Program-made: the position numbers and the translations under genes
Shown here: piece by piece, positions 3,191 to 24,917 of the stretch
Layout: each line of letters opens with the position of its first letter
Numbering within the stretch: position 1 is the first letter of the stretch
Notes under the pieces: model-generated
Database searches by the model: none
Told to the model about the DNA's origin: nothing
The model's input: only the letters and a program-made list of their open reading frames with translations
Virus record (IMG/VR): IMGVR_UViG_3300020045_007779
Location: 1-41,013 of that record
Reading direction: 5' to 3' (one strand)
Length of the DNA: 41,013 bases
Source: a virus
Lineage: Duplodnaviria; Caudoviricetes

Positions 3191-4192
3191 TTAAGCTCCA
3201 AAAGTTCTAGTTTTGTATTTAATAATTACTCTTAATGTTCCATCTCCTAGTGTTGGATCTGAACTGTCAGCAGTTGAAAGATTTAATGCAGTATTCAATA
3301 AATTTGCAAGAAATTGAGTATCTGTTCCTTTTTTGAAACTATTTGATGAAACGGTAATCATTCCATCAATATAAAATAAAGGATTAGTTCCAAGTAAAAA
3401 AGCTAAACTAGCAAATGTACTGTAAGGTGATGAAACATGTGTGTATTCAAGAATAATGTTTTCAATTTCGTAATACTTGCCAACTCCAGGAGTTGGGAGT
3501 AATTCAATTGGAGTAGTTCCCATGGCTAAAATTTCAGCAGAACTAATATCAACTACTTTAGTTTTGTATTCTGTATTGTAAAGTACTTGCCAAACTGGAC
3601 CAACTGTATCATTGAAAAGTATACAAAAATCAGAAACTAATAATTCATTTCCTCCAATATCAAAACCTTGAGTACTTTGCAAGATCAAATTTGACACTCC
3701 TGCAACTTTGATGAACTTAAATATATTAGGATAGGTAGTTTCTGCACTTGTCAAATCCTCTGTAACGTCACCCGAGCTTGTATCAACTATACACATGTAT
3801 TCTGCAAATTCTGTAGTAGTAGCGTAATTTTCAACACCTAATCCTAAAGAATCATTCAAGTAAGTAACAGAAGCGTCTAAAGTCCATCCAGTATCACCAC
3901 CTCCACCACCAGGTACACCAGAAACAAGCGAAATAATATTTACATTATCAGTTGTGTTTTGATAAACCAAATCAATAATTACATTTGAATCTGTAATTGT
4001 TTTTGAAGTACTTGCATCGATTAGGGTTTTATCACCGCAATTAATTACAAGCGAACCTGCACCAATTTTAATAACCTTAAAGTTTCTTTCTGCAAAAGTC
4101 GCTCTTGGCATTTGCAACGTAATATTAACGTTAGTTGTGTCAACTACTGTAATTTCATTGACTAAGTTTGAGTTTTGTGTAACTACTTTCAT
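3191..4192 (-). CDS. virion structural or fibre-like protein
   Basis: Beta-rich; GGGGG linker; C-terminal ISSAEIL...PIELLP.PG.G domain; inside a structural operon. Confidence 0.5.
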   Translation of the reverse strand: MKVVTQNSNLVNEITVVDTTNVNITLQMPRATFAERNFKVIKIGAGSLVINCGDKTLIDASTSKTITDSNVIIDLVYQNTTDNVNIISLVSGVPGGGGGDTGWTLDASVTYLNDSLGLGVENYATTTEFAEYMCIVDTSSGDVTEDLTSAETTYPNIFKFIKVAGVSNLILQSTQGFDIGGNELLVSDFCILFNDTVGPVWQVLYNTEYKTKVVDISSAEILAMGTTPIELLPTPGVGKYYEIENIILEYTHVSSPYSTFASLAFLLGTNPLFYIDGMITVSSNSFKKGTDTQFLANLLNTALNLSTADSSDPTLGDGTLRVIIKYKTRTFGA

Positions 4193-23146: not shown

Positions 23147-23307
23147 GATAATTCTAAATATTGCATGTTAAAATGTCTTTCTTTACCATAACCTTTTGCA
23201 GCGCAATAATGATCGTTATAAATCTTTGTAATAGTTAAAATAAATCCACCTAAATCACCTTTAGTTTTTACTTTATCTCCAACTTTAAACTTTTCTGTAT
23301 TTTTCAT
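23143..23307 (-). CDS. 54-aa SH3/KOW-like protein (not in ORF track)
   Basis: KFKVGDKVK...LTITKI; ATGA overlaps at both ends. Confidence 0.6.
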   Translation of the reverse strand: MKNTEKFKVGDKVKTKGDLGGFILTITKIYNDHYCAAKGYGKERHFNMQYLELS

Positions 23308-23969
23308 ATCTCAAAAGGTGCGTTTTCTCCTAAATGTGCGTTTTTATTACTTTCTCCATAAACTTTTAATTTCCCTAAAACGTTTTTTAACTCGTTTTGA
23401 TGCGATGTAATGAATTTTCTTGATTCTATTACTAATTGAATAAGTTCGTCTATAATATGTTGGTTAAAATCGATTTGGTAAGCAAACCAGCGTTGTTCAT
23501 CTGGCAAACTTTCATAATTTGTTTCGTTAAATCCAATTTCAATTGGAGTATCCATTAAACCATAAAACAAAATAGATTTAGATTTCTTAAACAAGTGCAT
23601 GTAAATTTGAAGTTGCAAATAATACATCATTGGAACAGGATCTAAAACATGATCATGTAAAGTTTTAATGTTCCAAGGGCTTTTTACATCAATTATACAG
23701 TCATTCAAAACAATGTCAGGACATCCAGTAAAGTAATCGTCCTCTTTTTGCTCTTGATTTTTACTTAAAAAACCCAAATCTAAAACTTTTGCAGCAAATT
23801 CAATACATTCTTCTTCAACTGTACTCCCTTTTGCAAAGTATTTTGATCTGATTTGTTCATTGTCACCTGCAACATATTCTTTCAAGTAAGTTTTTGCAGT
23901 TTCTGTTAAAATCCATCTTTTTGAATAGATTTTATAAGCTTGTGATGCTCGAATTTTGAATAAACTCAT
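23304..23969 (-). CDS. YqaJ/lambda-type recombination exonuclease
   Basis: RAS, G...E, GCPD...DVKSPW and QLQ.YM motifs. Confidence 0.85.
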   Translation of the reverse strand: MSLFKIRASQAYKIYSKRWILTETAKTYLKEYVAGDNEQIRSKYFAKGSTVEEECIEFAAKVLDLGFLSKNQEQKEDDYFTGCPDIVLNDCIIDVKSPWNIKTLHDHVLDPVPMMYYLQLQIYMHLFKKSKSILFYGLMDTPIEIGFNETNYESLPDEQRWFAYQIDFNQHIIDELIQLVIESRKFITSHQNELKNVLGKLKVYGESNKNAHLGENAPFEI

Positions 23970-24487
23970 GGTTTTAATAAAGCCTCCTCAACTTCTTTGC
24001 TTACAATGTATTTTAGTTTTATTTGATCCATAGTGTAACCGTTTGCAATTCCTTTTTTGCAGTTTTTGAAGTTTTCGGAATCAATTTCTAATTTTGGAAG
24101 TGTAAAAGATTCATTTATTCGAATTCCTCCAACAACTTGACCCATCATTTTAATAGTTGGATCAAAAAACAATTCAATCTTTAACCCTACCCAGTTTTTT
24201 AAATTCCTAGACTCTGCTGTAGTCAAGTTTTTAGCAATCTTTACTAAATTACTAATTACTTTTCGATTAGTTGAATTTACAACCATATCTTTAATTTCAG
24301 GCTCTTCAAATGAAATAAAGTAAGCATCTGTTTTATTTCCTGAAACATTTACTTTGTCTTGATAATAAGCCTCCTTAATTGTCAATATGCATTTTTTCTT
24401 TTCTAATTGAATTGTTTCAACGTCAATCCCTGCTAAGTGAGTAGATTTACGATGTTTCATGCAATCGATATCATTTTCTTTTGCCAT
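23966..24487 (-). CDS. putative single-strand annealing / ssDNA-binding protein
   Basis: Coupled to the exonuclease; N.TN...I...W.G.KI.L; C-terminal TMDQIK.KY tail. Confidence 0.5.
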   Translation of the reverse strand: MAKENDIDCMKHRKSTHLAGIDVETIQLEKKKCILTIKEAYYQDKVNVSGNKTDAYFISFEEPEIKDMVVNSTNRKVISNLVKIAKNLTTAESRNLKNWVGLKIELFFDPTIKMMGQVVGGIRINESFTLPKLEIDSENFKNCKKGIANGYTMDQIKLKYIVSKEVEEALLKP

Positions 24488-24599: not shown

Positions 24600-24683
24600 T
24601 ACCTATTTTTTGATCGCAAGAAATATAACTTTAAGTTTCTGACGGTACACTTATAAACCCTTAACTTGTCTTTCCAAGTGTCG

Positions 24684-24766
24684 TGGTCGGAGTAGGATTC
24701 GAACCTACAAAAGAGATCAACCTTTTCAGTCTTCCGACTTAGTGCCTGCCAATACACCACCCGACC
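24684..24766 (-). ncRNA. atypical tRNA-like RNA (GGAA tetraloop at the anticodon position)
   Basis: GGTCGGG/TCCGACC acceptor; GTGT/GCAC D-arm; GTAGG-TTCGAAT-CCTAC T-arm. Confidence 0.7.
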
Positions 24767-24778
24767 ATTTCAATGACA

Positions 24779-24785
24779 CAAAGTA
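24779..24785 (-). promoter_or_regulatory. -7 box TACTTTG driving the tRNA-like/recombination operon
   Basis: 12 nt upstream of the first tRNA-like element. Confidence 0.55.
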
Positions 24786-24909
24786 ACGTCGCTTTTTTTA
24801 TTTATCCTAATTTCTTGTAAGATTTTTTTATTGAATAATTTTATTAACCTCATTTTCAATGACTTAAATTTTTATTTTTCTAAGAATTTTTTATTTCTTA
24901 AAATAGCCG

Positions 24910-24917
24910 TATATTTG
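24910..24917 (+). promoter_or_regulatory. -7 box TATATTTG 5 nt before ATG 24923
   Basis: Exact match; near-IHF site TTTCAATGACTTA at 24854..24866. Confidence 0.65.

Follow-up and report, generated by a model that had tools for sequence, protein, structure and literature searches.

An anticodon-less tRNA-Leu-type shell in a phage operon leader belongs to a widespread family and may be an RNase P/Z processing mark

Introduction

In architecture, RNA1 of phage T5 is the closest known RNA to the element described here. T5 RNA1 and RNA2 (T5s03 and T5s06 of NC_005859) are annotated as 'tRNA-like stable RNA with unknown functions'. In phage T4, the small RNAs rnaC and rnaD (species 1 and 2 RNAs) come from the tRNA region and likewise have no known role (PMC3014915, excerpt). 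In plant mitochondria, tRNA-like shapes named t-elements have been proposed to mark mRNA ends in cis for cutting by RNase P and RNase Z (PMC1920247, excerpt). For RNase P, the RCCA contact, the N-1 base, and the T-stem-loop matter (PMC12710915, excerpt). Candidate tRNA-like RNAs were also reported in IMG/VR (PMC10690425, excerpt) and may include the family described below. No account of this family was found in the literature searched here, and the passages of PMC7609411 and PMC6409571 that were consulted contain nothing on it.

This study followed up a tRNA-shaped sequence, here referred to as element 1, in a virus record of 41 kb (41,013 nt; the whole stretch is called the window). The window has 30% GC, is estimated to be ~72% complete, and carries genes for terminase, portal, tape-measure, helicase, primase, and thymidylate synthase. 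Of five relatives of a neighbouring protein in genome collections, four lie in Bacteroidota assemblies, and the host of the phage is therefore probably a member of the Bacteroidota. ARAGORN at its default setting called no canonical tRNA in the window.

Results

Element 1 is a tRNA-Leu-type shell without an anticodon arm

Element 1 occupies positions 24766-24684 on the minus strand and is supported by Rfam, by folding, and by the identity of its frame to that of an element in another phage, L007. Its acceptor pairs GGTCGGG with TCCGACC (24766-24760 with 24691-24685, minus strand, as for all parts that follow), and the D-arm reads GTGT-ATTGGCAG-GCAC (24757-24742). The anticodon arm is replaced by AGTC-GGAA-GACT (24739-24728), a 4-bp stem with a GGAA loop, which is followed by a variable arm of 18 nt (24726-24709), the T-arm GTAGG-TTCGAAT-CCTAC (24708-24692), and the discriminator A73 (24684). 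Downstream of A73 stands CGA, not CCA; U-1 and C74 are present and CCA is not encoded. Apart from one lower-scoring match of the same clan, which was left out, the only Rfam family found at E<=1 was RF00005, with 33.0 bits (gathering 29), an E value of 0.0031, and the anticodon region unaligned. The features that make this family canonical are present, namely, a 7-bp acceptor, a D-arm with GG, and a 5-bp T-stem with a TTCRANY loop, and these arms pair, so that the initial annotation was right to call the acceptor, D-arm, and T-arm canonical. What a decoding tRNA has between the D-arm and the variable region, i.e., a 5-bp stem with a 7-nt loop, U33, and a purine at position 37, is missing. As the initial annotation had expected, ARAGORN gave no determined type: there was no call at default and 'tRNA-???' at a relaxed threshold; relaxed to ps70, the program made 121 calls, mostly noise.

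The fold has a z-score of -2.13, and 5 of 200 shuffled sequences folded equally well. GGAA stood in a 4-nt loop in 1974 of 2000 sampled structures, in a 6-nt loop in two, and in a 7-nt loop in none. The arms pair with a probability of at least 0.77, save for two G-U pairs at 0.61 and 0.51, and no arm contains a broken pair; the replaced anticodon arm, the long variable arm, and the intact stems are thus as first described. The window contains two T-arms that lead into a 7-bp acceptor, one in element 1 and one in a second element discussed below, versus none in 198 of 200 dinucleotide resamples of the window and one each in the other two. Element 1 is a real feature, and it is probably under selection. 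Two other identities were tried and rejected. A tRNA-Ser(GGA) reading does not agree with the missing U33 and 7-nt loop or with A as the discriminator. Hallmarks of tmRNA are G3-U70 and a tag frame; for a tmRNA or YrlA identity, pair 3-70 is U-A here and ARAGORN made no tmRNA call.

The sole 7-nt loop that refolding produced lies in the variable arm, which, slipped by one register, forms a 5-bp stem with a UUGAUCU loop in ~7% of the ensemble. It could be read as a displaced tRNA-Ile(GAU) anticodon arm that still decodes. This is exceedingly improbable: the slipped loop is not an anticodon arm because it abuts the T-stem directly, leaving no variable loop, and has C at position '37', and an extra hairpin lies between it and the D-arm. 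The missing anticodon arm also bears on the proposal of the initial annotation that element 1 is a decoy for anticodon nucleases. Defences that cut tRNAs are common and are countered by phage tRNAs (PMC12445682 and PMC13056530, excerpts), but the proposal fits poorly because the part that those nucleases cut is missing: they act on the anticodon loop or stem, which element 1 lacks and which is hypervariable in its family, and the screens show rescue by tRNAs with a matching anticodon (PMC12445682, excerpt). A decoy of this kind is very unlikely.

The nearest relatives lack an anticodon

The T-arm and 3' acceptor of element 1, used as a pattern, matched one locus in IMG/VR, L007. Its acceptor and T frame of 31 nt is identical to that of element 1, the 3' part by construction of the pattern and the 5' strand outside it; its middle of 65 nt holds no anticodon, and its discriminator is G73. 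All 41 canonical tRNA parses differ from the frame of element 1 at no fewer than 6 of the 31 positions. The nearest frames are non-canonical, with 0, 5, and 5 mismatches, and the nearest canonical frame has 6. An exact search with GTCGGAAGAC plus the T-arm gave one match in IMG/VR, the unrelated L006. Searches by blastn with L007 and L197 returned half-matches only, mostly to tRNA genes, and the whole leader cassette found only chance T-arm matches among cultured phages.

The closest phage relative, L008, shares 88% identity in the protein encoded next to the element. In L008, the promoter region and the gene start are conserved, and of element 1 the initial 4 nt; the two sequences become similar again just after the second element. 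The RNA in its leader is a different one, which includes a T-arm element that Rfam did not score and that folds ambiguously, forming no confident cloverleaf, as well as a mini-tRNA of 59 nt (L008:1782-1840, plus strand; Rfam 44 bits). The mini-tRNA has acceptor, D, and T arms, has just 9 nt in place of the anticodon and variable arms, ends in G73 followed by CAA, and stands ~24 nt before the gene, so that a second anticodon-less shape lies at an equal distance from the gene in both phages. Thus, an anticodon-less shape persists at this position despite sequence replacement. Of 170 relative loci, 139 extend 350 nt or more upstream; among these, only L008 has a tRNA-like leader on the downstream gene, and therefore this gene does not need one. 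A search with the shared promoter pattern gave 0 matches and hence no further close relative. The initial annotation had named homologues with normal anticodons as the sign of recent decay; none was found at the locus.

Element 1 may instead be a relic, i.e., a tRNA-Leu or a former family member that was brought by a mobile cassette and is drifting, with its stems intact as the decay is recent. This reading is considered chiefly because, in L008, the first element at the corresponding place seems damaged. It also agrees with the rarity of such leaders (1 of 139 loci), with a D-loop that deviates from the family consensus, with the status of element 1 as the only strong match to the family model in a 72%-complete genome, and with the canonical phage tRNA-Leu genes that have the same GGTCGGG acceptor (L279, L304, and L376). 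On the other hand, no pair is broken in any arm, and compared with the family consensus, the 15 frame pairs hold five two-sided changes and one wobble. Further points against decay are the anticodon-less state of the nearest frame relative, the adjoining hairpin that is typical of these cassettes, and the second anticodon-less shape at the same gene distance in both phages. A relic is considered distinctly unlikely.

Element 1 is a divergent member of a widespread phage shell family

When the D-arm/T-arm pattern was searched without an acceptor constraint, many elements starting with AGTCAGG were obtained. They were grouped in this analysis as a family of AGUCAGG-type phage tRNA shells. Element 1 has the parts by which the family is recognized, namely, an NGUCRGG acceptor paired to the 3' strand, U-1, U8, U48, R73, C74, and the T-arm, together with a non-canonical middle without an anticodon arm; judged from its sequence, it is one divergent member of this widespread kind of shell. 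The same pattern also retrieved unrelated class-II-type phage shells (L196, L204, and L246) in which a GAAA tetraloop caps the first arm; in L246, the middle measures 33 nt, as in element 1, and CCA is encoded.

Two scans of IMG/VR were made. The 5'-anchored scan, in which the D-arm and the acceptor 5' strand are fixed by the pattern, covered 124 loci (~550 stretches estimated) and gave 109 parsed elements, of which 4 have canonical Leu anticodons and 105 have none. The anticodon-less members carry U48 in 102, A73 in 90, G73 in 10, a purine at 73 in 100, C74 in 98, and U-1 in 82 cases, and the middles of the set range from 20 to 196 nt. The 3'-anchored scan, with an exact 25-nt pattern, covered 135 loci (~1300 stretches estimated); its 153 matches, after 10 were dropped for a short flank, comprised 140 distinct sequences. 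A pairing 5' strand is present in 129 of them, at lengths of 54-182 nt, with U-1 in 109 and not one canonical anticodon arm. A strict Leu D-arm is found in only 14 of these 129 and GG at that place in 119; the D-arm being mostly relaxed, the constant core is the acceptor/T minihelix. As neither L007, the nearest relative in frame, nor the family at large has an anticodon, the initial view of element 1 as a non-decoding tRNA mimic is upheld.

An alignment was made of the members whose middles measure 30-52 nt, 38 of 39 in all (the near-canonical L297 was left out). It showed pairing in 99.1% of cells and two-sided changes in 7 pairs versus 0.5 in shuffles, a control that relatedness can inflate. 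The tetraloop itself is not what the family conserves. None of the 105 members has a GNRA-capped first hairpin and 5 have GNRA anywhere, so a GNRA loop was rejected as a family hallmark and is incidental in element 1. The middles are diverse: 104 of them fall into 90 clusters, 81 being singletons. They are mildly structured (mean z -0.93) and show no excess pairing at the base of the anticodon arm, and 41 of the 104 have a helix ending exactly 2 nt before the T-stem, versus 10.4 when shuffled. At two loci (L289:700-805 and L312:700-805, both plus strand), the middle starts with an anticodon-like 7-nt loop without U33, followed by a long variable region. It was considered whether the shell carries its middle, either as antisense or guide cargo or as an intron that is spliced out to give a normal tRNA. 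The mild structure, the few middles common to related phages, and the introns proposed for phage tRNAs (10.1101/356790, excerpt) speak for such carriage. Against it, the 33-nt middle of element 1 matches nothing else in the window over more than 10 nt and has no counterpart among the middles of other members, and anticodon halves are not conserved across the family. This middle is already of tRNA-Leu size, and therefore intron removal would leave too little. Carriage is highly improbable.

Leucine identity features are partly retained

The family model of the frame (R1) scored element 1 at 53.5 bits and host tRNA-Leu at 39-62 bits. It scores shells and true tRNA-Leu alike and does not separate them; the frame therefore appears to be simply a tRNA-Leu frame. 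In the eight complete host tRNA-Leu genes, A73-C74 is present in all and CCA is encoded in one. Of the LeuRS identity set (PMC2377443, excerpt), element 1 has A73, U8-A14, G18-U55, and G19-C56; U48 is present but paired in the favoured fold, and A15 is absent or replaced. Activity measurements on Aquifex aeolicus tRNA-Leu gave 1.7x after deletion of nt 35-37, 0.45x after deletion of the whole anticodon arm, and 0.8x for A15U (PMC2377443, excerpt). Element 1 is possibly a synthetase substrate, for LeuRS.

In a trans-acting reading, the released RNA is itself the product: CCA-tailed and either LeuRS-charged or uncharged, it would be a decoy for proteins that bind the acceptor end or elbow, e.g., the synthetase, EF-Tu, or defence effectors that cut or modify the tail. 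Retention of A73, U8-A14, G18, G19, U48, and the long variable arm by element 1 is in line with this, as are the dispensability of the anticodon arm to LeuRS (PMC2377443, excerpt), the prevalence of U48 and A73 in the family together with Leu-type variable-arm geometry and the lack of excess pairing at the anticodon-arm base, and the existence of tail-recognising immune nucleases such as Cas12a3 (PMC12851939, excerpt). Element 1 would also be the first RNA behind the promoter. However, A73G lowers leucine charging ~140-fold and oversized variable arms charge poorly, at 0.023x (PMC2377443, excerpt); G73 occurs in the nearest frame relative, 15 of the 105 members are without A73, and most family middles are larger than that of tRNA-Leu. 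In the favoured fold of element 1, pairing runs right up to the T-stem (-26.8 kcal/mol; the Leu geometry, at -24.5 kcal/mol, is 2.3 kcal/mol worse), the D-stem has a fourth pair and the D-loop is one base short, and the second element has U73. The trans-acting reading is deemed unlikely, though it is the main rival to the processing mark proposed below. Its broadest form is doubtful, namely, that thousands of Leu-identity anticodon-less RNAs in Bacteroidota-type phages are CCA-tailed, LeuRS-charged, and an RNA-only counter-defence against acceptor-end and tail effectors. If it were true, element 1, with an anticodon arm 3 nt under the normal size, would come closest of all examples to the size of a tRNA and lend itself best to testing.

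Element 1 opens a three-part RNA cassette

Element 1 lies in a divergent intergenic region, with ORFs running rightward from 24923 and leftward from 24487. A candidate Bacteroidota -7 promoter motif, TTACTTTG (24779-24786, minus strand), is found 12 nt before element 1. It is one mismatch from TAnnTTTG, the Bacteroidota -7 consensus, and is conserved in the alignment with L008. On the other strand, TATATTTG (24910-24917, plus strand) fits the same motif perfectly and precedes the rightward operon. The region is predicted to be a divergent promoter. A scan for sigma-70 promoters and terminators yielded none above shuffles.

The leader contains three RNA parts, namely, element 1, a hairpin, and element 2, of which the initial annotation covered element 1 only. 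The hairpin, of the GGAAAGAC kind and reading YGAC-N-CTTG-GAAAGA-CAAG (24665-24683, minus strand), begins at C74 of element 1 and has no Rfam match. Hairpins of the form YGAC-N-stem-GGAAAGAC are present in 27 distinct copies in 355 tRNA-frame loci (340 kb), 13 of them just before a family frame, versus none in 170 gene-relative loci (587 kb) and one in the window. Examples are also seen at L268, L402, L404, L435, L466, and others, and in most cases a tRNA or shell follows immediately on the 3' side. T5 RNAI likewise contains CTTGGAAAGAC. Element 2 (24599-24512, minus strand) is a second anticodon-less tRNA shape, recognized by its T-arm/acceptor match and by folding. Its acceptor is GCGTTTA/TAAACGC, its variable arm is short, and its T-arm is followed by U73 and then CAA. 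A 7-bp arm with an AAAA loop, or alternatively a 6-nt loop, takes the anticodon position; the CTAGA/TCTAG arm, whose loop is then TAAAAA, looks like the anticodon arm of a tRNA-Leu minus one base. Element 2 scores weakly in the family model (11.2 bits, E 0.47) and is not scored by Rfam at E<=1.

The first downstream gene (23966-24487, minus strand; 173 aa, phrog_21613) has its start codon 24 nt after element 2, and its protein is left unnamed by Pfam and the protein atlas. The second (23304-23969, minus strand; phrog_5715 and phrog_434) encodes a RecE-like exonuclease. The 'recombination mRNA' placed downstream by the initial annotation therefore agrees with the second gene, whereas the first is of unknown function. 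In locus L052, a long-middle shell (3193-3310, plus strand) lies downstream of a relative of the phrog_21613 gene.

Family members often adjoin open reading frames

The stop or the start of an ORF lies next to 26 of 58 family members, compared with 15 of 98 canonical tRNAs (p=1e-4), a contrast that is inflated by the clustering of canonical tRNAs with one another, which biases the control. Within 15 nt after a stop codon, 14 of 58 members and 4 of 98 tRNAs were found (p 4e-4), and within 40 nt before a start, 16 of 58 and 11 of 98 (p 0.015). Phage G005 has 13 shells in 5 kb beside a tRNA cluster (L400:1484-6511 = G005:C1:7183-12210). Their ends are near-identical and their D-arms and middles variable, with two copies having identical middles, and many of them alternate with small ORFs.

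Discussion

Taken together, the conserved parts, the punctuation of ORFs, and the cassette swap at element ends make a processing mark in a mobile cassette the best reading: element 1 would be an RNase P/Z mark in a swappable RNA cassette of a phage operon leader, a proposal given an even chance of being correct. A processing signal was among the options of the initial annotation. The parts conserved in the shells are those read by RNase P and the 3'-processing enzymes, and the free part is ignored by these enzymes. Purine 73 and C74 are kept as in the host tRNA-Leu genes, U-1 prevails in the 3'-anchored sample, which has no canonical anticodon arm, the pairs are preserved by two-sided changes around freely varying middles, and the frame is identical to that of an anticodon-less relative and distant from all canonical parses. 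Shells adjoin ORFs and are arrayed among small ORFs in G005, and L008 retains the promoter and gene start and swaps the RNA, mini-tRNA included.

Following this proposal, transcription would start from the motif at 24786, and RNase P would cut at G1, given U-1, purine 73, C74, and the intact T-arm. Host enzymes would then trim the 3' end after A73/C74. The products of these cuts would be three separate small RNAs, namely, element 1, the hairpin RNA, and element 2, and a downstream mRNA whose 5' end is made by processing. As processing can do without the anticodon region, this region would drift, capped by any stable hairpin that arises, here one with a GNRA loop. The constant ends may double as exchange points for cassettes.

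Several observations weigh against the processing mark. Element 1 stands directly behind the promoter with no ORF after it, and therefore its cutting would separate RNAs, not genes. Only L008 among the 139 loci shares a tRNA-like leader, and its first T-arm element may be decaying. The ORF contrast is inflated as stated, the family model does not distinguish shells from tRNA-Leu, and the family keeps Leu-specific traits for which RNase P has no known need (A73; the helix 2 nt before the T-stem). The processing-mark and trans-acting readings are not mutually exclusive.

The role of the tRNA-like RNAs of T4 and T5 has been unknown for decades, and element 1 leads to a family in which the tRNA-Leu frame is fixed and the middle is free. 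The family shows selection that keeps the acceptor, elbow, U-1, R73, C74, and U48 and ignores the anticodon, and it makes the old question testable, i.e., a processing mark versus a trans-acting mimic. Should the shells be processing marks, phages would be punctuating accessory cassettes with tRNA shapes much as mitochondria do; should they instead be charged decoys, they would represent a new RNA counter-defence. Scanners for tRNAs miss or mislabel such shells.

Compared from sequence only, element 1 agrees with the T5 type in having a tRNA body with a replaced anticodon domain. T5 RNA1 shares with element 1 a D-arm of the Leu type, a non-standard arm for the anticodon, and a T-arm; its variable arm ends 2 nt before the T-arm, and such RNAs are interspersed with small ORFs in T5 as in the shell family. 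In contrast, the acceptor sequence of T5 RNA1 and RNA2 is another one, their anticodon domains are enlarged, not shortened, and they sit in a large coliphage tRNA cluster, whereas the window has no canonical tRNA. RNA1 reaches 20.4 bits in the family model. T4 rnaC has a T-arm and gives a partial match of 23 bits only; neither rnaC nor rnaD has the acceptor or D-arm frame of element 1. Bacteroidota tRNA-Leu (class II) shares with element 1 the D-arm type, U48, A73, C74 without CCA, U-1, and a long variable arm, but element 1 lacks the 5-bp stem with 7-nt loop, U33, and the anticodon, and its D-loop is one base shorter. In its proposed action, element 1 resembles the plant t-elements, which are organellar, have mapped ends, and have no known conserved sequence frame, whereas the frame of the shells is strongly conserved and their ends are predicted.
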